Shown here in pieces: positions 10,591 through 56,916 of a stretch of 64,000 nucleotides of DNA (its first letter is position 1; every line of letters starts with the position of its first letter). Where the stretch lies: the NCBI GenBank assembly GCA_002478265.1, contig DLNC01000012.1, positions 114,074-178,073 of the forward strand, in the 5' to 3' direction. Below the pieces are notes generated by a model. The model saw only the letters and a program-made list of their open reading frames with translations, searched no databases and had not been told where the DNA came from. Both the position numbers and the translations under genes were made by a program. The stretch comes from Syntrophaceae bacterium UBA7520. Lineage in GTDB: Bacteria > Desulfobacterota > Syntrophia > Syntrophales > Smithellaceae.

Positions 10591-10628
10591 GATGAGGAGG
10601 GCTACAAACAACACCCTCCTCATCTTTT
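10591..10628 (+). terminator. rho-independent terminator
   Basis: Perfect 11-bp stem GATGAGGAGGG / CCCTCCTCATC with a 12-nt loop, followed by TTTT. Confidence 0.7.
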
Positions 10629-10636
10629 GAGGCAAG

Positions 10637-11002
10637 TCATCGTATAGACATCATTCTGGGCAATGCAAAAAGTTCTGAACAGCAGCCACGACAAACAAAG
10701 CAACCGCCTCTTCCACAATTATCATACCAGGTGCAAACACAGTCTCCCGCGCAATCTGTTCCGATTGACGCGCGCCTGGCCTTGGTTTGCGGCTTCATCT
10801 GCTCAACGTAGCTTTTACAATCTTTTCCTTGCAGCTTGTATGTTTCCTTGCCGTCTTTGCCCTTCTCTACGGCATAGGCGCAATCAATTGCTTTTTGTTG
10901 CACCTTTTGCGCGGCGGCCGTTAATGAAGGTGCGGCAAAAAACATGAGCAATGCCAGAATAAAAAAACAAAAAAACCATTTACGCTTTTGAAGATTTTTC
11001 AT
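10637..11002 (-). CDS. small secreted Cys-rich protein (paralogue of 53760..54101)
   Basis: Start moved to ATG 11002 (MKNLQKRKWFFCFFILALLMFFAAPSLTAAAQ, a signal peptide), preceded by GGGGGA. The mature part shares KDGKETYKLQGKDC and CVC...VCRGCC blocks with the ORF at 53760..54101. Confidence 0.6.
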   Translation of the reverse strand: MKNLQKRKWFFCFFILALLMFFAAPSLTAAAQKVQQKAIDCAYAVEKGKDGKETYKLQGKDCKSYVEQMKPQTKARRASIGTDCAGDCVCTWYDNCGRGGCFVCRGCCSELFALPRMMSIR

Positions 11003-11086: not shown

Positions 11087-12448
11087 TTATTTAATAAAAG
11101 TATCATAAACTCCCGCGGCCATAATCAAGATAATCATCGCCGGAACAAAGTAACGAAGAAGAAAAACCCACCATTTGCCGATGGTGAAACCGGCGCAGCC
11201 TCTGTTGGCTTCACGAACCGCTTTTTTTGCACCCCACACATATCCCACGAAAATCGCCGAGAGCAGTCCACCGAGCGGCAAAAAGATGCTGTTGGCAAAC
11301 CAATCGTAAGTGTCGAGTAGATCCGTGCCAAGACCGGGAAAAGAAACTCCGCTCAACACGCTGTAACCTAAACTTGCCGGAATTCCCACGACAAATATAA
11401 TAAACCCCATAACAATGGCCGCCTGTTTTCTTTTCCACCCTTTCTCATCAATTAGCCAGGCTGAAACAACTTCCAAAAGAGAAATAGCCGAAGTTAAAGC
11501 GGCAATGCCCAAAAGCACAAAAAAGAGGACTCCAAAAATAATCCCAAAAGGCATCTGGGCAAAAACAGCGGGCAAAGTTATAAAAACCAGTCCCGGTCCC
11601 GCCCCCGGCGCAAACCCCAAGGCAAAAACCGCCGGGAAAATAGCAAAGCCAGCCAAAAGAGCCACTATTGTGTCCAGGCCCACAATGGAGGCGGAGCTTA
11701 CCGGAATTTCATCATTTTTCTTGAGATAGCTTCCGTAAGTGATAAAAACGCCCATCCCCAAACTCAAAGAAAAGAAAGCCTGCGAAATAGCGCCGAGTAA
11801 TGTTCTGCCGGTAACTTCGCTGAAATCCGGCTTCAGATAATAAGACAACCCCGCGCCGGCACCGGGCAGGGTGATAGCTCTTATAATCAGAACAATCAGC
11901 AACACAAAGAGAATGGGCATAAGAATGGTGGACCATCTTTGAATCCCGTTAATCACGCCGGAGGCAATAATACCGATAGTTAAAAGCATAAATACCGCCT
12001 GCCAGATAAGGGGCTCCCAAACACTTGCTATATGTTGCTTAAATACCTGCGCGTGGTCAATTCCCTGAGTCGTTGTAGCAACGATAACTTTATATATATA
12101 AGCAATAGACCAGCCGGCGACCACGATATAATAGGAAAGAATTACAAAGCCGGTGAAAACTCCCAGCGCCCCAACCAACCACCAGGGGCTTTGCGGCGCC
12201 AAAGATTTAAACGCCCCCACGGGGCTTTTCTGAGAAGCTCTGCCAAGAATTGTTTCATTAACAACCAGCGGATATCCGATTAGCAATATGGCAATAAGAT
12301 AAATGACTATGAAAGCCGCGCCTCCGTGTTCACCCGTCATATAAGGAAACCGCCAGATATTGCCCAAACCCACCGCCGAGCCAGCCGCGGCTAAAATAAA
12401 ACCGGCGCGGGTCGCCCAATGCTCCCGGCTTTTTTTCGGATTACTCAT
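11087..12448 (-). CDS. neurotransmitter:sodium symporter (NSS/SNF) family transporter
   Basis: 453 aa. The N-terminal signature WATRAGFILAAAGSAVGLGNIWRFPY is present, with about 11-12 TM helices. Confidence 0.9.
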   Translation of the reverse strand: MSNPKKSREHWATRAGFILAAAGSAVGLGNIWRFPYMTGEHGGAAFIVIYLIAILLIGYPLVVNETILGRASQKSPVGAFKSLAPQSPWWLVGALGVFTGFVILSYYIVVAGWSIAYIYKVIVATTTQGIDHAQVFKQHIASVWEPLIWQAVFMLLTIGIIASGVINGIQRWSTILMPILFVLLIVLIIRAITLPGAGAGLSYYLKPDFSEVTGRTLLGAISQAFFSLSLGMGVFITYGSYLKKNDEIPVSSASIVGLDTIVALLAGFAIFPAVFALGFAPGAGPGLVFITLPAVFAQMPFGIIFGVLFFVLLGIAALTSAISLLEVVSAWLIDEKGWKRKQAAIVMGFIIFVVGIPASLGYSVLSGVSFPGLGTDLLDTYDWFANSIFLPLGGLLSAIFVGYVWGAKKAVREANRGCAGFTIGKWWVFLLRYFVPAMIILIMAAGVYDTFIK

Positions 12449-25807: not shown

Positions 25808-26233
25808 ATGAAAAAAAGAGTTTTATTTTTGTGTACGGCTAATTCCTGCCGGTCGCAGATGGCGGAAGGCATCACGAATCACTTTTGGAACGACCAATTT
25901 GAAGCCTATTCCGCCGGAACCCAAGCTTCTTATGTTAACCCCACGGCTATCAGTGTGATGAAAGAAATCGGGATTGATATTTCCAAACACCGATCAAAGA
26001 ATCTTTCAGAATTCGACGGGCAGAGCTTTGATTATGTAATCACGCTTTGTGGTGACGCCAATGAAACGTGCCCTTTGTATATCGGCGGAACTAAAAAAAC
26101 GCATATCGGCTTTGATGACCCGGCACAAGCGGCAGGCACAAAAGATGAAATATTGCGGGAGTTCCGGCGCGTGCGCGATGAAATTAAAGAAAAATTAACT
26201 GCTTTTTTTCGCAGCGAAAAAATAATTAATTAA
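25808..26233 (+). CDS. arsC: arsenate reductase, LMW-PTPase (thioredoxin-coupled) type
   Basis: 141 aa. [18 protein letters not shown]-loop plus downstream Cys residues ([11 protein letters not shown]). Confidence 0.9.
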
Positions 26234-26243
26234 GGAGAAATCA

Positions 26244-27296
26244 ATGTCAGAAAATATCGTAAAAAAATTGTCATTTCTGGATAGGTTTTTAACGCTGTGG
26301 ATTTTTATCGCCATCGGCGTGGGCATCGCCCTGGGTTACCTGCTGCCGCAGGTTTCAGAGTTTATCACCGGATTACAGGTAGGCACAACTTCCATCCCTA
26401 TCGCCGTCGGCCTGATTCTCATGATGTATCCGCCGCTGGCCCGCGTCAAATACGAGGAGATGGGCAAGGTATTTAAAAACAAGAAGCTACTGGGCATTTC
26501 CCTTCTGCAGAACTGGGTAATCGGCCCGATTGTCATGTTTATTCTCGCCGTTATTTTTCTGCATAATTATCCTGAATACATGATCGGTGTCATTCTGGTG
26601 GGTCTGGCTCGTTGCATCGCCATGGTCATTGTTTGGAATGAACTGGCCTGTGGTGACAGGGAATTGGCCGTAGGACTTGTCGCTTTTAACGCTGTGGCGC
26701 AGGTGCTCTTCTACGCTTTTTATATTTATTTCTTCATTACGGTCATGCTCAACTGGCTGGGTCTGGCCCAGTCGGTTAACATCGATATTTCCATGGCGGA
26801 GGCGGCAAAAACCGTTTTCATTTACCTGGGCATTCCTTTTCTTGCCGGCATGATTACCCGCTATTCTGTTATCTATCTGAAAGGCGAAGATTGGTTTAGC
26901 AATGTTTTTATGCCCAAACTCTCGCCGCTTACTCTGGTTGCGCTGCTCTTTACAATTGTGGTAATGTTTTCCACGCAGGGCAATAAAATAATTGAATCGC
27001 CTTTTGATGTTTTTATTGTGACGATTCCATTGACAATATATTTTGTGATCATGTGGTTTGTAACTTTCTTTATCATCCGAAAAATCAGCGGCAATTATGA
27101 GCAGACCTGCGCCGTTTCCTTTACCGCAGGAAGCAACGATTTCGAGCTGGCCATCGCCGTGGCTATTGCCATCTGGGGCATCGGCTCCGGACAGGCATTT
27201 GCCACAGTTATCGGTCCGCTCATCGAAGTACCGGTGCTCATCATCCTGGTAAATGTGGCGCTAAGATTTAAGAATAAATTCTTCACCGGCAGATAA
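26244..27296 (+). CDS. acr3: ACR3-family arsenite efflux transporter
   Basis: 350 aa. [14 protein letters not shown]-terminus, [11 protein letters not shown] (conserved Cys), and 10 TM helices. Confidence 0.9.
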
Positions 27297-27320
27297 TTTT
27301 TTAAGGAGGTGCCAGTTAGC

Positions 27321-28349
27321 ATGAAGTTAAGCGAATACATAAAAAAATACCGCCTACCGGTCACCATTGTTCTGGCGTTGACGGGCATTGGCCTAATGCT
27401 CTACTATGATTACTGCGATACCGTCTGCAGTTTCCTGCGGGGCGATATTTTCGGCATTGATCTTAAATGGATCGGGATTGCCTATATGGCGATCATTATA
27501 ATTTTTACGGCTTTTCAGCAATTTGATTTTGTGCGCGCGCTGCTCGCGGCCGGCCTGGGTGTAGAGATTTATCTTTACAGTTTTCAGATTCAAAACAGCG
27601 TCTATTGCCCTTTCTGCCTGGCTTTTTCCGTTGTGGTGATTTTGTCATTCATCATCAATTATGAAGCATCGCCCGCGTGGCGGGAAAACCAGCGCAAGAT
27701 GTGGCTATATTTCTTAGGGGAGGTAAATTTTCCGATGTTTAAAATAAAAAAATTGCCGTTGGCCATGGTTGCTCTGATCGGGTATTTTTTTGTTTTTTTA
27801 ACCTTTACCGGTTCGGTTACGCCTGTCTATGGACAGGATAAGATAACGGGCATTCCTTCACTCGGCAAAGGCCCGTACGAAGTTATGATGTTTTCCAATT
27901 ACTTTTGCCCACCCTGCCGCAAAATAGATACCAAAGCCGAACCCTTATTCAAAGAATTGCTGGGAACCGGCAAAGTTAAGATAATATTTATTGATGTGCC
28001 TTTCTCGAGTCCGGCTGCTATTTATGCTAAATATTACTTGTATGCCGCCAATATTGATCCCAGCGCAGAGAATATCCTTCATGTGCGAAATATACTTTTT
28101 GAAGCAGCACAGGGCATGCGCATTAAGGATGAAAACGCATTAGCAACCTATTTGAAGGAAAAGAAAGTATCCTGGAAGACAATGGATGAAAAATCAGTTT
28201 TCCCACTAATGAGCGTGGTTATTAAAGAAAATCAAATCAATGCCACGCCCACCTGTGTCATAAAATATTCGGAAAAAGACATAAAGAAATATGTTGGCGA
28301 CGATGAAATTTGGAGAGGGCTGACAGAGCTTAAAAAACAACTAAAATAA
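27321..28349 (+). CDS. VKOR-like membrane thiol oxidoreductase fused to a periplasmic DsbA/thioredoxin-like domain
   Basis: Start placed at ATG 27321, after AAGGAGG. A loop Cys pair (YCDTVC) follows TM1, a CxxC (YCPFCL) sits at the start of TM4, a fifth TM follows, then FCPPCRK in a Trx-fold domain. Confidence 0.55.
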   Translation: MKLSEYIKKYRLPVTIVLALTGIGLMLYYDYCDTVCSFLRGDIFGIDLKWIGIAYMAIIIIFTAFQQFDFVRALLAAGLGVEIYLYSFQIQNSVYCPFCLAFSVVVILSFIINYEASPAWRENQRKMWLYFLGEVNFPMFKIKKLPLAMVALIGYFFVFLTFTGSVTPVYGQDKITGIPSLGKGPYEVMMFSNYFCPPCRKIDTKAEPLFKELLGTGKVKIIFIDVPFSSPAAIYAKYYLYAANIDPSAENILHVRNILFEAAQGMRIKDENALATYLKEKKVSWKTMDEKSVFPLMSVVIKENQINATPTCVIKYSEKDIKKYVGDDEIWRGLTELKKQLK

Positions 28350-28372
28350 TCAAATTAACGGAAAGTATTTTT

Positions 28373-29542
28373 ATGAAAGAATGGCAAAAACTTTTCTGGA
28401 TCGTCGCGATCTTTCTGGGCGCTTACTATATTCCTTGGGAAGCAGCAATAATCCGTCAATCCGGCCTGGAAGCATTTATGATGCTTCAGGAATACGCCCG
28501 CCAGCACGTGCTCACCTGTCTCATTCCCGCTTTTTTTATCGCGGGGGCGATAGCGGTATTTGTCTCGCAGGCGGCGGTGCTCAAATATTTCGGCGCGAAA
28601 GCCAATAAATTTTTATCTTATTCCGTGGCTTCTGTTTCCGGATCAGTTCTGGCGGTTTGTTCCTGCACTGTTTTGCCGCTCTTCGCGGGAATATACACGC
28701 GCGGCGCGGGTATCGGCCCGGCAACCGCTTTCTTATATTCTGGTCCGGCCATAAACGTCCTGGCAATAATTTTAACCGCTAAAGTCCTGGGCTGGCAACT
28801 AGGTCTGGCGCGCGCCATCGGCGCCATTCTTTTCGCCATTGTCGCGGGGCTTTTGATGGCTTATATCTTCCGCAAGGACGACGCCAACAGAGATAAAGGC
28901 GAAATCTTTTTGCCGGACGAAGAAAAAACAAGGCCGCTTTGGCAGAACGCTGTGTATATGCTGACGATGGTATTGATTTTAATTTTTGCTTCGTTTGCGA
29001 GGCCTTCGGAAAGTGATTCTCAAATTTGGCAGACAATTTATTCCGTTAAGTGGTACCTGACCGCATTCCTGCTGATTGTTCTGGCCGTGATTCTTAAAGC
29101 CTGGTTCATTAAACAGGAACTTAAAGAATGGGTGAAATCTTCCTGGGATTTTGCGCTGCAGATTCTGCCGCTGCTTTTGGCGGGAGTTTTAGTAGCGGGA
29201 TTTTTACTGGGACGCCCCGGGCACCCGGCGCTGATTCCCGAACAATACATTCAGACGCTTGTCGGCGGAAATTCTTTCTTCGCAAATTTTTTCGCGTCCC
29301 TTGTCGGCGCTTTAATGTATTTTGCCACACTTACCGAAGTGCCGATTTTGCAGGGATTAATCGGCTCTGGAATGGGACAAGGTCCCGCACTCGCGCTGCT
29401 TTTAGCAGGACCTGCTTTATCATTACCGAACATGATTGCCATTGCCAGTATCATGGGCATCAAAAAAACGGCTGTTTACAGCATCATTGTCGTGATTCTT
29501 TCGACGTTTGCCGGCATGAGTTACGGCTGGTTCATGTCTTAA
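28373..29542 (+). CDS. DUF318/ArsP-like permease (putative organoarsenical efflux)
   Basis: 389 aa, polytopic. It has AVCSCTVLPLF and FLYSGPAINVLAI motifs like the ArsP/UPF0718 permeases found in ars operons. Confidence 0.65.
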   Translation: MKEWQKLFWIVAIFLGAYYIPWEAAIIRQSGLEAFMMLQEYARQHVLTCLIPAFFIAGAIAVFVSQAAVLKYFGAKANKFLSYSVASVSGSVLAVCSCTVLPLFAGIYTRGAGIGPATAFLYSGPAINVLAIILTAKVLGWQLGLARAIGAILFAIVAGLLMAYIFRKDDANRDKGEIFLPDEEKTRPLWQNAVYMLTMVLILIFASFARPSESDSQIWQTIYSVKWYLTAFLLIVLAVILKAWFIKQELKEWVKSSWDFALQILPLLLAGVLVAGFLLGRPGHPALIPEQYIQTLVGGNSFFANFFASLVGALMYFATLTEVPILQGLIGSGMGQGPALALLLAGPALSLPNMIAIASIMGIKKTAVYSIIVVILSTFAGMSYGWFMS

Positions 29543-29570
29543 ATATAATATAAACAATGAACCGGCAAAG

Positions 29571-30674
29571 ATGGATGAATTAAATAAAATATATATTGAG
29601 CCGACCAACCGCTGCAACCTGAACTGTCTTATATGTATCCGCAATTCTTGGAACGAAACATACGGGGAAATGGCTTGGCCGGTATACCGAAAATTAATCA
29701 ATGATCTCAAAGACTTTCCTGAAGCGAAAACAATAGCTTTTGCCGGCCTGGGCGAACCGCTGCTTCACCCCAAGCTGCCGGAAATGATTAGTCTTGCCCA
29801 CGAACGAGGATTAAGAACGGAAATAACAAGCAACGCGCTTCTGCTGACTCCGGCAATGGCGCGCCAGCTTATTGACGCCGGACTGAATCAGTTTACTGTT
29901 TCCATTGACGGTGCTTCAGAAGATGTTTATGAAAACATCCGTCCCGGCTCCTCGCTCGAACAAATTGTAAAAAACGTCACGTATCTGCGCCGGCTGACCG
30001 AGGCAGATGCCAAGCCTATCAGAATCGGCGTCGTTTTTGTCGCGATGAGGCGCAACATACAAGAGCTTCCTTATCTCAAAAAAATTGCGCGCAGAATAAA
30101 AGCTTCCTTCATCCTCTTAACCAACATTCTGCCCTATACGGCGGAACTGCAGGATGAAATTCTCTATCGGCTTGGGCCGAGAACAAACAGAATAAGCGGA
30201 GTGCCGTCTTCTCCCCTCTGGATACTGCCGGACATGGATTTCACTGAAGAAACGATGAAACCGCTGGCTTCAATATTTCGCAGTCCTTCAAGCTTGGCAT
30301 TTCTTGATTTTCCCTTAAACAGGAGAAACAATTATTGCCCTTTTATCAGCGCCGGCAGTGTTTCCATAGGATGGCACGGCGGCGTTAGTCCGTGCCTGCC
30401 TCTTTTGCATTCCTATACTTGCTTTATCAGGAACAGGGAAAAGAGATTTTTGCGCTGCGAATTTGGAAATCTGGCAGAGCGTCGGTTGAAGGAAATTTGG
30501 GCAGAACCGGGATTTTCATCATTACGCGAGCGTGTGCGCGCGTTTGATTTTCCGCCCTGCACCGATTGCGGCGGATGCGAACTGGCCGAAACAAACGAGG
30601 AAGATTGCTTCGGCAACAAATTTCCGGTTTGCGGCGATTGCCTTTGGGCGCGCGGTGTCTTACGCTGTCCCTGA
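29571..30674 (+). CDS. radical SAM enzyme with C-terminal SPASM/twitch domain
   Basis: 367 aa. CNLNCLIC (Cx3Cx2C) motif, GGEPLL-like GLGEPLL, and a C-terminal Cys cluster (CPFISAG...C, CTDCGGC, CGDCLWARGVLRCP). Confidence 0.8.
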   Translation: MDELNKIYIEPTNRCNLNCLICIRNSWNETYGEMAWPVYRKLINDLKDFPEAKTIAFAGLGEPLLHPKLPEMISLAHERGLRTEITSNALLLTPAMARQLIDAGLNQFTVSIDGASEDVYENIRPGSSLEQIVKNVTYLRRLTEADAKPIRIGVVFVAMRRNIQELPYLKKIARRIKASFILLTNILPYTAELQDEILYRLGPRTNRISGVPSSPLWILPDMDFTEETMKPLASIFRSPSSLAFLDFPLNRRNNYCPFISAGSVSIGWHGGVSPCLPLLHSYTCFIRNREKRFLRCEFGNLAERRLKEIWAEPGFSSLRERVRAFDFPPCTDCGGCELAETNEEDCFGNKFPVCGDCLWARGVLRCP

Positions 30675-53644: not shown

Positions 53645-53676
53645 TTCATATCAGCGCTTCCTGCCATTGGGCGGAG
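53645..53676. repeat. left copy of a perfect 32-nt direct repeat (TTCATATCAGCGCTTCCTGCCATTGGGCGGAG)
   Basis: Identical letter for letter to 56204..56235. On the minus strand it encodes SAQWQEALI-stop, a detached copy of the 3' end of the lipoprotein gene at 56205..56657. Confidence 0.9.
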
Positions 53677-53709
53677 ATACTTATTTAGGCGATTTATTAT
53701 TGGGATTAA

Positions 53710-53740
53710 AAGCCCGATGATGAATTTCATCATCGGGCTT
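53710..53740 (-). terminator. hairpin terminator downstream of the Cys-rich protein gene
   Basis: AAGCCCGATGATGA - ATT - TCATCATCGGGCTT, a perfect 14-bp stem. On the minus strand it is followed by TTAATC, a modest T tract. Confidence 0.55.
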
Positions 53741-53759: not shown

Positions 53760-54101
53760 TTACCGAAAAGCGGATGAAACTTTTGCAAGGCAGCAATTAC
53801 CGCGACAGACAATCACTCCATAAGAAGTCCTTTCACAAACACAGCAAGTCGCTTTTTGCCCCTGTTCCGAATTTACCTGATTTGCGACCTTATCGCAATC
53901 CTTACCTGTCAGCTTATAAACAGTTTTCCCCTCTTTATCCTTTTCTTCGGTCATTTTGCAATCTAGCTTTGATTTTACTTGACCTGCCGTAGTTTGTTTG
54001 TTTAATTTATTTTCCGACGCGGCAGTTACCAATACGCCGGAAAAATAAACTGAAGCCAACAAAATAACCATGCCCATTAATAAAACCTTTAAAATTTTCA
54101 T
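53760..54101 (-). CDS. small secreted Cys-rich protein (paralogue of 10637..11002)
   Basis: 113 aa. Signal peptide, then KEGKTVYKLTGKDC and CCVC...VCRGNCC blocks shared with the 10.6-kb copy. Confidence 0.6.
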   Translation of the reverse strand: MKILKVLLMGMVILLASVYFSGVLVTAASENKLNKQTTAGQVKSKLDCKMTEEKDKEGKTVYKLTGKDCDKVANQVNSEQGQKATCCVCERTSYGVIVCRGNCCLAKVSSAFR

Positions 54102-54222
54102 ACTCCTTCTCCTTTCCTTTTTATTTGCTGCTTTTTCTCCGCAAAGCGTTTACCTTTGCAAAGAAATTAATTGAATATCTACATTCTGATATTAATATTT
54201 CCTCTTTGCATTAATCCGGCTT

Positions 54223-55152
54223 TCATAAATTGCTGACGTTTCTGGAATTTTCTGTTTGCCGATTGTTTAAATCCTTTAGCGCGTCCATGGCTTTTTTCCA
54301 TAGGTCTTCTGCATCAGCATGTTGGCTGCAAAATTCTGCAAGGGTATCGCACTGGATCTGGCACAAGTACAAACGCCTTTTTTGATTCGCATTCTCTATG
54401 GTCCCTTCAGCCGCCGTGACCAAGTTTACTCTCTGGCAACATTCAGCGCATTTTTTATAATCACACGACCCACAGGCAACGCTTACTGAAAAATTTGTAT
54501 TGCGCGCGCCTTGCTGCGCTTTAAGTGCTTCATTCATCCCCCCAAAGCGGGAAATTTCATTATCAAGTTCTGAGCTCGCTCTCTTCAAACACTGCTTACT
54601 TTCAGCCGGAATAAGCCCCTGGGCAGACAGTTTACGGATATCAGCGCCCACTGCGGCAATTGACTGCCTCAAACTCTCCAGATCCTTGAAAATATTATCT
54701 TTAAGCCGACGTGAAGCGCTTACACTTTTTTGCAAACGCCGAACTTCAGGACTTTGGTCTTGCACTTGTTCGCGGGTAATCCGCCCTTCGATTTGATTTT
54801 GCGATGTCTTTGACGCAGTGCCCGCAATAGCGCCACGCGTGGAAAGCTGTTCCGATTGAATCTGTTTAAACTGATGTTGCGTTTTTAGGAACACTTCATT
54901 TATCTCATTATCCATTTTAAGATATTCGCTGAAAGATCGGTTAAGCGAAGCCATTTTCCCTTTAAGACCATTGTAATCTTCACAAATATGCACGGACAAC
55001 GAGGAAACATTTGCCTGTTGCTTTTTCACAGTCGATGCCTCGGTAAAGTTTGGCTGAATTTTTTGCGCCTCCCGGAACTCCTGTGCCGGAGAATAATGAG
55101 GGCTAAATAAAAACCCGACAAAGCAGATAAAAATGATAATATATTTTTTCAT
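54223..55152 (-). CDS. secreted coiled-coil protein with Cys-rich C-terminal region
   Basis: 309 aa. Signal peptide, long Q/E/K/S-rich helical region, then CGSCDYKKCAECC...LCQIQCDTLAEFC. Confidence 0.5.
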   Translation of the reverse strand: MKKYIIIFICFVGFLFSPHYSPAQEFREAQKIQPNFTEASTVKKQQANVSSLSVHICEDYNGLKGKMASLNRSFSEYLKMDNEINEVFLKTQHQFKQIQSEQLSTRGAIAGTASKTSQNQIEGRITREQVQDQSPEVRRLQKSVSASRRLKDNIFKDLESLRQSIAAVGADIRKLSAQGLIPAESKQCLKRASSELDNEISRFGGMNEALKAQQGARNTNFSVSVACGSCDYKKCAECCQRVNLVTAAEGTIENANQKRRLYLCQIQCDTLAEFCSQHADAEDLWKKAMDALKDLNNRQTENSRNVSNL

Positions 55153-55196
55153 AATACCCCCTAATATAAATGTCGGTTGATTCTTAAAGTTTTAAA

Positions 55197-56048
55197 CTAC
55201 TGCTTTACCAGTTCAACCCGCCGGTTTTTAGCTTTTCCCTCCTCTGTTTCATTTGCGGCAATGGGGGCCAGCGGACCTACGCCGGCAGACTTAAGGCGGT
55301 CTGATGCGATATTATATTTTGAAACCAGTTCTTTAACCACAACATCTGCTCTTTGCTGGGAGAGCTTCATGTTATAATCAAGTCCGCCTATGTTATCGGT
55401 ATGACCAACGACATATATATTCAATTGCGGATTATGTTGAAGAAGCTTTGTTATCTCTTTCAGGGCGTTTTCCGATTCGGGTTTGATATTCGCTTTGTTG
55501 AAATCAAAATAGATTCCATAGATCGCGACGTGGCCAGACGTATTTATCCCCTCGGCCATGAATTTAGCGTCGGCGACAATTTCCTGTATCATGGCCTGTT
55601 TTTCGACAATACACAATCTTCCGGCCAGGCCGGCATATCCTTGCCAGAACACCGCCCAGATCTCTTTTCCGTCTACGACAACCTTCATGTAAGTGCTGTC
55701 AGGCCATTTGGGATCATTCTCGAACGCCATACCCCCTATCTTGGTAATGGCGTTTATATAATTCCTTGAAATTTGCAATCTGCTATACCTATTTTTGTAA
55801 TCCGTCTTAAGGCCATAATCTATCGAGTATTTTCTCCCTTCAACGCTTATCTTCTTTTTTGTTTCAGGATCAATGAACGTCTCAGTATCGAAATCTTTTT
55901 GTTCGCACTTAGTTATATAGAAACCTTCCATTCTGGAAAAAAGCAGATGGTCCTTGCATCCTTTTTTATCCTCTTGGGCTAAGGCGTGACCGGATACCAG
56001 CAAAAATACAATCAGCAAAAATAACGAAAACAAACCTGATTTTCTCAT
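55197..56048 (-). CDS. OmpA-family peptidoglycan-binding protein (DUF4892-like N-domain + OmpA_C)
   Basis: 283 aa. Signal peptide and a C-terminal FDFNKANIKPES...VVGHTDNIG...NMKLSQQRA...NRRVELV region. Confidence 0.85.
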   Translation of the reverse strand: MRKSGLFSLFLLIVFLLVSGHALAQEDKKGCKDHLLFSRMEGFYITKCEQKDFDTETFIDPETKKKISVEGRKYSIDYGLKTDYKNRYSRLQISRNYINAITKIGGMAFENDPKWPDSTYMKVVVDGKEIWAVFWQGYAGLAGRLCIVEKQAMIQEIVADAKFMAEGINTSGHVAIYGIYFDFNKANIKPESENALKEITKLLQHNPQLNIYVVGHTDNIGGLDYNMKLSQQRADVVVKELVSKYNIASDRLKSAGVGPLAPIAANETEEGKAKNRRVELVKQ

Positions 56049-56203
56049 AAATCATAGCCTCCTTAAGATAAAAGTTGTTTTTTATAAAAAATAGGAATTC
56101 TTTTTAACTCCCGACTATTCGGGAAAAATTAAACAAAAATGAAAATGGTTTTAGTGGTTTGCGTCCTATTTTGTTTTAACAATCCTATGGTTTAATAATT
56201 GTT

Positions 56204-56235
56204 TTCATATCAGCGCTTCCTGCCATTGGGCGGAG
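56204..56235. repeat. right copy of the 32-nt direct repeat
   Basis: Identical to 53645..53676. It covers the last 9 codons plus the stop of the lipoprotein gene. Confidence 0.9.
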
Positions 56236-56657
56236 GTGACTTTCCATGCGCCTGATTCTTTCTTCAGCGTCACGTCAAAATTCCACACGCCGAGCGATTC
56301 CGGGATGACATCGCTTATGGACCCTGTCTGGACGCCGCTGGTGAGCACTACTTCGAACCCGGCTTTTGCCGCCGCTCCTTCCACGGAAATATCAAGATTG
56401 CTGATGTAGACCGCTATCTTCGGATAGCGAAAAAAGTAACCAATCAGCAAGCCCCTGATGTCTTCGTAATTATTTCCCTGGGGATCGGAATAATTTTTGG
56501 AGACGTGCTCCATAACCCTTTTGACTTCCTTTTCTTCGCTTGCCGCCTGAATAGCCGTGATAATCTTTTTAATCTTGGTCTGCTCGTCTTCTCTGGCACA
56601 GCCGCTGAAGGAAGCGGCAAAAATAAAAATAAGAAAAAACGTTGTAACGCGTTTCAT
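56205..56657 (-). CDS. lipoprotein, NTF2-like/unknown function
   Basis: 150 aa. Lipobox FSGC after a hydrophobic signal peptide. Confidence 0.6.
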   Translation of the reverse strand: MKRVTTFFLIFIFAASFSGCAREDEQTKIKKIITAIQAASEEKEVKRVMEHVSKNYSDPQGNNYEDIRGLLIGYFFRYPKIAVYISNLDISVEGAAAKAGFEVVLTSGVQTGSISDVIPESLGVWNFDVTLKKESGAWKVTSAQWQEALI

Positions 56658-56673
56658 TCGATATCCTTGCTAA

Positions 56674-56916
56674 TTACAATAATTTTTCGTCGATATTGCC
56701 CGGGCCGCCGCATTCCGGTGTGTAGCAGGTAACGTTTCTGAATTCGCATTTGCGGAAACAGGATGGGCATTGTTCCGGAATGTTTTGCGCCTTGAGGATG
56801 AACCCGCATTCGCGGCATTTCCAGTAAGTCATACCGCAGTCAGGGCACTTGTCGTCATCAAACGGCTTGTCGGATCGGTAGCCGCAAATAGCACATTCTT
56901 TAACCGCCATCTCCAT
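56674..56916 (-). CDS. rubredoxin-like double zinc-ribbon protein
   Basis: 80 aa. CAICG...CPDCG and a rubrerythrin-type WKCRECG...CPSC, plus extra Cys residues. Confidence 0.6.
   Translation of the reverse strand: MEMAVKECAICGYRSDKPFDDDKCPDCGMTYWKCRECGFILKAQNIPEQCPSCFRKCEFRNVTCYTPECGGPGNIDEKLL

Follow-up and report, generated by a model that had tools for sequence, protein, structure and literature searches.

Bacteria export a range of small disulfide-rich proteins that carry a Sec signal peptide, have a mature chain of fewer than 100 residues and an even number of conserved cysteines, and gain or lose these cysteines in pairs. Small partners of membrane carriers are a second described system of interest here; MetS, of the MetPS carrier of Corynebacterium glutamicum, is a short and hydrophobic peptide of the membrane that is not known to carry a cysteine-rich periplasmic domain. 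The syntrophic Desulfobacterota degrade hydrocarbons and fatty acids and are hard to culture. In a 64,000-nt stretch of DNA from a member of this group (the window hereafter), an earlier note made from the sequence alone had pointed to two open reading frames, referred to below as A and B, for small exported cysteine-rich proteins. Both resemble the generic disulfide-rich proteins in all the traits just listed, but differ from them in having no sequence or fold match to a curated family or structure, and in belonging to a strict anaerobe whose exported proteins, as called heuristically, show no bias towards even cysteine numbers. A and B belong, as diverged members, to an undescribed, lineage-restricted family of Sec-exported mini-proteins, which counts as new in that it is DUF-like and without a structural match. 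Our best guess for its function is that of a periplasmic accessory mini-protein.

Both genes were found on the minus strand at the positions that the earlier note had assigned to them (Table 1). The mature part of A is 90 residues long (10.0 kDa; pI 8.85) and contains 10 cysteines, eight of which form the family core while the other two make up an extra pair in the loop of the second hairpin; one further cysteine lies in the signal peptide. Mature B (about 85-86 residues, 9.3 kDa, pI 8.95) has the minimal 8-Cys core. The lengths of 85-90 residues and the 8-11 cysteines initially proposed for the two proteins were thus accurate. The start codon of A is the ATG at 11002, 7 nt after the Shine-Dalgarno sequence GGGGGA. 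A longer frame extending up to 11080 was rejected on the grounds that the extra N-terminus is not conserved among orthologues; what conservation there seems to be in this extension comes from translating the Shine-Dalgarno region. The start of B is preceded by the ribosome-binding site GGAGAAGGAG, and the site is strong in both genes. Full-length A and B align by BLASTP with an E-value of 4e-11 and 32% identity. The mature parts alone still match with an E-value of 2e-9 and 38% identity, indicating that the similarity is independent of the signal peptides. Six-frame translation of the 2.34-Mb genome yielded exactly two occurrences of the pattern C-x-C-x(5,12)-[VI]-C-[RK]-G-x(0,1)-C-C, and a family HMM run with its filters off likewise returned A and B as the sole copies. 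The paralogy suggested earlier is therefore upheld, with two copies only. A possible third and very distant copy on contig C2 (65151-65507; ..ICRGNGSAC..) scored -0.5 bits against the family HMM and was left uncounted.

Table 1 Features of the A and B loci and of related loci. Positions are those of the window; a dot marks features to which no strand is assigned.
Feature	Position	Strand	Description
Hairpin, 11 bp, GC-rich	10591..10624	.	Between the convergent A and DUF2238 genes; T-run on the plus-strand side
Copy A gene	10637..11002	-	121-aa precursor; predicted signal peptide ~residues 1-31 (..TAAA/QK)
NSS (SNF, PF00209) transporter gene	11087..12448	-	85 nt upstream of A; PF00209 E 1.6e-62
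Candidate disulfide-forming enzyme	27309..28349	+	VKOR-like membrane part (CPFC) fused to DsbA-like thioredoxin domain (CPPC)
Radical-SAM/SPASM gene	29571..30674		19 kb from A; part of an ars-type cluster
Left copy of perfect 32-nt direct repeat	53645..53676	.	Orphan duplicate of the 3' end of the lipoprotein gene, just past the B terminator
Intrinsic terminator hairpin after B	53708..53740	-	AAGCCCGATGATGAAATTCATCATCGGGCTTTT; homology with L031 stops there
Copy B gene	53760..54101	-	113-aa precursor; predicted signal peptide ~residues 1-28
Coiled-coil protein gene	54223..55152	-	Exported, 309 aa; Cys-rich C-terminal part (10 Cys); in the inserted block
OmpA-like protein gene	55197..56048	-	Exported, 283 aa; conserved ~170-aa N-domain and OmpA peptidoglycan-binding domain; heads the cassette
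Right copy of perfect 32-nt direct repeat	56204..56235	.	Within the 3' end of the lipoprotein gene
Lipoprotein gene	56205..56657	-	150 aa, lipobox FSGC; its final 32 nt form the right-hand repeat copy
L041 (Syntrophorhabdus) cluster			OmpA-like, 482 aa, 140 aa, 221 aa, B
L032 cluster			OmpA-like, 464 aa, 146 aa, 135-aa Cys-rich protein, B
L010 cluster			OmpA-like C-terminus, 140 aa, 133-aa Cys-rich protein, B

Word-based searches returned seven relatives of A (59-68% identity) and four of B (52-78% identity). A family profile built from 13 sequences was scored exhaustively against 1.84 billion cluster representatives, and only 26 matches were obtained at a cut-off of E <= 1e-3, of which 24 are proteins of 93-227 residues sharing the same architecture. 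Homologues are thus present in about 24 clusters. Two long repeat proteins (P0032 and P0035) match profile positions 24-74 only, several times over and with no cysteine framework, and were discarded as spurious or as alike in the hairpin alone. The named source records of the family are Syntrophaceae, Syntrophales, 'Deltaproteobacteria' and Syntrophorhabdus MAGs, and at least three short A-type contigs from metagenomes are among the matches listed. Members occur in 5 of the 15 genomes of the genus, none was found in the other six genera of the taxonomic family, and a phylum-wide sample contained the family in 4 of 401 genomes. No model of Pfam-A, NCBIfam, PADLOC or PHROGs reached its threshold with A or B, nor with any of the 33 members scanned; the best scores of A and B in curated libraries were 11.1 bits for DUF5633 (cut-off, 23.6), 14 for AvrL567-A (cut-off, 27) and 12.9 for ComGC (cut-off, 75). 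The best match of the family profile among PDB sequences had an E-value of 0.14 (cut-off, E < 1e-3), and literature searches turned up no relevant work on cysteine-rich proteins of Smithella or on small secreted cysteine-rich proteins in the periplasm of anaerobes. The earlier view of an unrecognised family thus held, with no named domain, curated family or solved structure matching it. The A/B family is under strong purifying selection: Nei-Gojobori dN/dS values, far from 1, range from 0.08 to 0.26 in all pairs short of saturation, among A orthologues as well as among B orthologues, and values this low indicate that the A and B genes encode functional proteins.

Alignments of the family show a common order of elements consisting of a Sec signal peptide, a DC motif with a first hairpin, a helix, a cysteine cluster, a second hairpin and a tail, with 8 conserved cysteines. 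The first hairpin carries D-C followed by E-K-x-K-x-G-K-x-x-Y-x-L-x-G-K-D-C; the cluster reads C-(x0-3)-C-x-C, and the second hairpin terminates in [IV]-C-[RK]-G-(x0-1)-C-C. The C-terminal tail is amphipathic and basic, ending in Arg or Lys in 27 of the 33 members. The blocks that the earlier note had quoted as shared by A and B are correct and coincide with the best-conserved columns of both the 13- and the 33-sequence alignment. In the B type, the mature chain opens with a conserved acidic EENxLxAQ segment that leads into a disordered linker. Signal peptides across the family have a positive n-region, an h-region of 16-20 residues and small residues at -3/-1 (IGA/E, TAA/A, VSA/E, the slash marking the cleavage site), and a heuristic predictor picks up those of both A and B, which are accordingly described here as predicted cleavable Sec signal peptides. 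Three other possibilities raised by the N-terminal half of the protein were considered and dismissed. Twin-arginine export would call for an RR pair; a few A-type orthologues have one (RRKWFF), but it is not kept in the others, and A of the window reads KRK instead. A calcium-binding DxDxDG at the hairpin tip (EKDKDGK) is not conserved either, the equivalent being EKGKDGK in A and EKGSNGQ or ETKVDNE elsewhere. A RiPP precursor is at odds with the classical signal peptide at the N-terminus, and no maturase is adjacent, the radical-SAM/SPASM gene lying 19 kb away in another cluster (Table 1).

An AlphaFold2 model of B based on the 33-sequence alignment gave block-mean pLDDT values of 81-90 over residues 51-110, and 76 for residues 111-113. 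Its topology is beta1(49-54), beta2(60-65), alpha1(69-79), beta3(88-91), beta4(97-100) and alpha2(104-112). A separate model of A, built on an overlapping 13-sequence alignment, was of lower confidence and followed the order of B through beta4, without the final helix. The family is thus predicted to form a compact alpha/beta domain of the type beta1-beta2-alpha1-beta3-beta4-alpha2. Foldseek searches of the PDB returned no significant match to either model, the best E-values being 0.09 for A and 0.26 for B, and the best E-value of model B against BFVD, 9.4e-3, fell short of E < 1e-3.

The number of cysteines in the mature chain is even in 29 of 33 members (8 in 21 members, 10 in eight), and the extra ones come in pairs at three places: a 'WKC' in beta2 with a 'KDCxxC' in alpha1 in five members; two in the loop joining beta3 to beta4, shared by A and four other A-type members; and, in P0028 and P0033, two at the equivalents of B positions 52 and 62, which pair across the strands of the predicted beta1-beta2 hairpin. 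Conversely, the variant G437 has lost the first cysteine of the cluster together with one of the terminal cysteines. A-type proteins have 2 residues between C6 and C7, B-type proteins have 3 and P0023 has 6; between C3 and C4 the number is 0, 1 or 3 across the family. Paired gain and loss together with variable spacing favor four disulfides over a metal site. Weighing the two options, we consider disulfides moderately probable and a metal or free-thiol function improbable, if well short of negligible.

What tempers this preference is the host. Neither DsbB nor MauE was found in the genome; MauE has recently been shown to take the place of DsbB in the phylum to which the host belongs (bioRxiv 10.64898/2026.03.05.709764). 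The sole candidate quinone-linked oxidase found in the genome is the fusion protein listed in Table 1, the VKOR-like part of which scores 17-19 bits, below the Pfam cut-off, while its DsbA-like part matches PF13462 with an E-value of 5.6e-12; its gene sits in an arsenic-type cluster. The CPFC and CPPC motifs of this fusion nevertheless count in favor of disulfides. One DSBA-family match was found in the genome. The exported proteome of the host shows no even-cysteine bias, with 58 even against 80 odd counts among predicted exported proteins, as judged from heuristic calls of reading frames and signal peptides without a positive-control genome; in the same genome, equally heuristic and uncalibrated counts gave 14 even against 23 odd numbers among lipoproteins and, among cytoplasmic proteins, 583 against 637. 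With no DsbB or MauE, and a sub-threshold VKOR encoded in an arsenic-type cluster, a generally oxidising periplasm is doubtful in this strict anaerobe, and the family raises the question of how, or whether, such an organism makes a four-disulfide protein.

These same features of the host speak for another reading, according to which the cysteines would stay reduced in an anoxic periplasm and bind either a metal (Zn, Fe, Cu(I) or Ni) or a thiophilic metalloid such as As(III), or else carry sulfur, making the protein a periplasmic metal buffer, metallochaperone or sensor. The CC, CxC and CxxC motifs of the family are typical of metal-thiolate sites, four members weakly match a PHD-type zinc finger (best E-value, 1.2e-4), the family profile weakly touches a metal-binding domain of ATP7B in the PDB (E-value, 0.14), and a subgroup carries G-K-D-C-x-x-C at the junction of strand and helix, reminiscent of the GMxCxxC of HMA domains. 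The PHD-type and ATP7B matches all lie below significance, however, and none of the 33 members matches PF00403, the HMA domain. The corresponding loops of the window proteins, GKDCKSY and GKDCDKV, have one cysteine each, and GKDCxxC is found in five of the 33 members, so that a CxxC at this junction is missing from A, B and most of the family. Nor did the family alignments reveal the fixed CxxC knuckle spacing and the eight zinc ligands including His that a zinc finger of this type would show. Fixed metal knuckles do not tolerate changes in ligand spacing of the kind seen here between C6 and C7 and between C3 and C4, and the pairwise gain and loss of cysteines, in one case across two strands, likewise speaks against a metal site, as do the missing twin-arginine signal for the export of a cofactor-loaded protein and the lack of metal-related genes among the neighbours. 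We hold this reading to be fairly unlikely.

The gene immediately upstream of A encodes an NSS transporter, as the earlier note had indicated (Table 1), and no terminator was found between the two. The order is kept at the orthologous loci of relatives, A lying 18-85 nt downstream of the NSS gene; some of these loci include an additional gene for a 417-aa lipoprotein, which the window lacks. Six genomes of the genus have an NSS orthologue of at least 89% identity, each with A behind it (in one of the six, G062, the A-type gene is cut by the contig end after its start, 'MMKD'); both genes are missing from seven others, and no genome of the genus has A by itself. This co-occurrence and the short, terminator-free distance suggest that A and its orthologues might be a dedicated small subunit or regulator of the NSS amino-acid transporter, B being a paralogue recruited to another envelope module. 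Yet two genomes of the genus with an NSS orthologue of 77-81% identity are devoid of A, the more distant A-like members P0014 and P0016 have no transporter next to them, and co-inheritance within a single genus may be plain synteny. Moreover, cleavage of the signal peptide would leave a protein without a membrane segment. Adjacency to the NSS gene is kept within the genus and is not a trait of distant members or of the B type. We regard a role restricted to the transporter as unlikely. Through this link, the idea of an accessory protein for a bacterial NSS carrier can be put to the test.

B closes a run of genes in the order lipoprotein, OmpA-like protein, 309-aa coiled-coil protein, B and terminator. 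Consistent with the repeat-flanked cassette described earlier, B has the OmpA-like and coiled-coil genes upstream of it, and the cassette is bracketed by a perfect 32-nt direct repeat. The 2.56-kb block between the repeats has a GC content of 0.406 against 0.477 for the genome, which places it in the 4th percentile of 2.5-kb windows. In the relative L031, B directly follows the lipoprotein gene and there is no OmpA-like gene; positions 54141..56216 of the window are an insertion relative to L031. The site downstream of the lipoprotein gene harbors differing cargo in other members of the genus, and the 309-aa coiled-coil gene is almost unique to the window genome. The B cassette looks horizontally acquired.

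The possibility that the protein is a secreted toxin, bacteriocin or intercellular signal acting outside the cell would fit an apparently acquired cassette, the patchy accessory distribution of the family in the genus and in the phylum sample, and a product that is small, basic, rich in cysteines and exported. Neither an immunity gene nor a dedicated exporter or outer-membrane secretion system was found nearby, though, and Sec export alone stops at the periplasm of a diderm. In addition, the defence (PADLOC) and phage (PHROGs) libraries gave no matches, and the low dN/dS values lack the diversifying signature common in antagonistic effectors. We consider this option very unlikely.

Comparison of B-type loci points instead to the cell envelope. 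B-type genes end clusters headed by an OmpA-like gene in four lineages, namely the window, Syntrophorhabdus (L041), L032 and L010 (Table 1), and P0019 adjoins a member of the 140-aa family. In the phylum sample, the N-domain of the OmpA-like protein occurs in three of the four genomes that have the cysteine-rich family and in 28 of the 397 others. Altogether, the OmpA-like family is present in 31 of 401 genomes, against four of 401 for the cysteine-rich family, and is followed by variable exported proteins. Since the OmpA-like family is by far the more widespread of the two, the cysteine-rich protein is an occasional accessory of this module and not part of its core. P0014, P0016, P0023 and P0027 have unrelated neighbours, and the context is thus not kept family-wide. 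Two of the B-type clusters (L041 and L032) encode, between the OmpA-like and B-type genes, an exported protein of 464-482 residues with an H-E-K-x-H motif, and a small, rigid and basic cysteine-rich protein could conceivably serve as an inhibitor or chaperone of such a co-encoded exported HExxH enzyme, much like small disulfide-rich periplasmic protease inhibitors. The HExxH protein is, however, missing from the window and L010 clusters and from all A-type loci, the two HExxH proteins have no detectable mutual similarity by BLASTP, and neither matches a peptidase family. The chances of this explanation appear slim.

Putting these observations together, we tentatively propose that A and B are periplasmic, disulfide-stapled accessory or adaptor mini-proteins for the envelope proteins encoded upstream of them. 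Upon cleavage by signal peptidase I, the domain would fold in the periplasm and be stapled by four disulfides, with a likely bond between the leading cysteine of the C..CxC cluster and either residue of the terminal CC pair. A binding surface may be formed jointly by the invariant tip of the first hairpin (E-K-x-K-x-G-K..Y-x-L-x-G-K-D-C), the turn at C-R-G and the C-terminal helix, which is basic and amphipathic; through this surface the mini-protein would act as a small accessory or adaptor subunit for envelope proteins of the same transcription unit. A would have the NSS transporter as its putative partner, and B would serve the OmpA-like protein, anchored to peptidoglycan, and the variable exported proteins that go with it. 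The list of functions entertained in the earlier note, which ranged from disulfide-knotted to metal-binding proteins and from toxins to structural adaptors, is narrowed in part by this analysis: disulfides are favored over metal by the behavior of the cysteines, and gene context makes an accessory role in the envelope more likely than that of a toxin or bacteriocin.

A bolder version of this accessory proposal would see in the family a new class of periplasmic mini-protein at the level of the fold, with a disulfide-stapled, circularly permuted ferredoxin-like beta-beta-alpha-beta-beta-alpha domain whose gene, placed last in envelope cassettes, passes horizontally between syntrophic Desulfobacterota, and which acts as a plug-in subunit modulating membrane or envelope machines, in one case an NSS amino-acid transporter and in the other a peptidoglycan-anchored OmpA-like scaffold. 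We deem it quite unlikely that all of this applies. Should the simpler proposal be confirmed, an unnamed and structurally unmatched family, and a candidate Pfam entry, would join the envelope biology of the syntrophic Desulfobacterota. With about 24 clusters in 1.84 billion and no phenotype attached to it, the family is rare and its wider impact limited for now.

Among described proteins, the closest in predicted topology are those of the eIF1/SUI1-type fold, the best Foldseek hit in this respect, which also pack two beta-hairpins on helices in the order beta-beta-alpha-beta-beta-alpha. The match to the A and B models is non-significant (E-values, 0.09-0.9; TM, 0.33-0.38) and the likeness one of topology only; eIF1 is a cytoplasmic, ribosome-binding protein without a cysteine framework, whereas the A/B family is exported and has 8 cysteines. 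The first hairpin of the family resembles DUF5633, a repeat of ~40 residues in Gram-positive surface proteins (x-Y-x-V-x-K-G-x-D-G-K-x-x-Y-x-L), and it was through this segment that P0035 was drawn into the searches. DUF5633 differs in forming tandem repeats, in having no cysteines and in lacking the second half of the domain, and its match to the family, at 11 bits against 23.6 and a best E-value of 0.016, stays far under the threshold. The arrangement C-x-C..G..[IV]-x-C-x-G-x-C around a beta-hairpin of the family recalls the first half of a PHD finger (PHD and zinc-knuckle models PF23011 and PF13771). The four members that match these models do not include A or B, and the family departs from the nuclear or cytoplasmic PHD finger in having no conserved His ligand, in its variable ligand spacing and in being exported. 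With regard to gene arrangement, the parallel is with MetS: A, too, is encoded by a small gene directly downstream of, and co-inherited with, an NSS gene, although its adjacency holds within one genus only. By analogy, a subunit role for A at the transporter would be comparable to that of the small partner peptides of some bacterial NSS carriers and of the single-pass partners of eukaryotic SLC6 carriers. If the plug-in subunit described above were real, the family would provide a bacterial counterpart of the latter.

Cysteine usage was considered across the predicted exported proteins of the whole genome, relying on heuristic calls and without a control genome. An even number of Cys residues was counted in 42% of these proteins, which amounts to no even-Cys bias, and 26% of them lacked Cys altogether versus 10% of the cytoplasmic proteins (likewise from heuristic calls without a control genome), indicating that the exported set is Cys-depleted. 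Both parity and depletion are what one would expect of an organism in which disulfide formation in the periplasm is not routine. As its sole candidate disulfide oxidase, the genome encodes a VKOR-like/DsbA-like fusion, and the arsenic-type cluster in which it resides is an unusual location for such a gene [Table].

Besides A and B, the paralogous small exported Cys-rich proteins of the window, further proteins of this kind were found outside the window, on other contigs of the genome (C36:38679-42846, C2:65151-65507 and C27:52404-52769). The C36 locus encodes five of them consecutively (mature forms of 66-200 aa with 6-15 Cys), two of which are paralogues starting with DKCIDDCV. The 118-aa C2 protein, which ends ..CVEICRGNGSAC.., is vaguely reminiscent of the A/B family; its match to the family HMM was not significant.

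Loci harboring relatives of A (A-type) vary in turn. In some relatives, an additional 417-aa lipoprotein-like gene, with no Pfam match on record, separates the A-type gene from the convergent DUF2238 gene (L004:8565-9818; syntenic in L005-L009); it is missing from the window and from L016. In one member of the genus (L016:5950-6564; L021, G068:C3), the A-type frame extends to 204 aa (..ELFSLALANVV..), and P0007, a close metagenomic relative, terminates ..ELFSLAPR. The 204-aa frame is probably the product of a stop loss, a frameshift or an assembly error.

The site downstream of the lipoprotein gene near B looks like an insertion hot spot. A 2.56-kb low-GC block holding the OmpA-like gene, the gene for a 309-aa coiled-coil protein and B lies there between direct repeats [Table], and the cargo at this position is different in other genomes of the genus (L031, L077-L080), where the site is either empty or occupied by B only, by 3.8 kb encoding enzymes or by a dihydrouridine-synthase-like gene. 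No integrase was visible at the site. The neighboring 80-aa rubredoxin-like ORF is kept in the relative L031, for whose copy PF21349 RUBY_RBDX is on record.

Table. Window positions of the repeats, the rubredoxin-like ORF and the arsenic-type cluster
Feature	Position	Strand	Remarks
Direct repeat, perfect, 32 nt	53645-53676 and 56204-56235		3′ end of lipoprotein gene
Rubredoxin-like ORF, 80 aa, four CxxC pairs	56674-56916	-	between HD-domain gene and lipoprotein gene
Arsenic-type cluster	25808-30674		LMW phosphatase/ArsC-like, SBF/Acr3-like and ArsP permease genes
VKOR-like/DsbA-like fusion, CPFC + CPPC	27309..28349		inside arsenic-type cluster
Radical-SAM/SPASM gene	29571..30674		inside arsenic-type cluster

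Across Desulfobacterota, a conserved exported OmpA-like protein of ~280 aa, the N-domain of which begins QEDxKGCKDHPLF, was present in 31 of the 401 genomes sampled over the phylum. Lineage-specific exported proteins regularly come next after its gene, several of them Cys-rich (L041, L065-L074), with examples including proteins of 136 aa with 4 Cys, 190 aa with 8 Cys and 464-634 aa.
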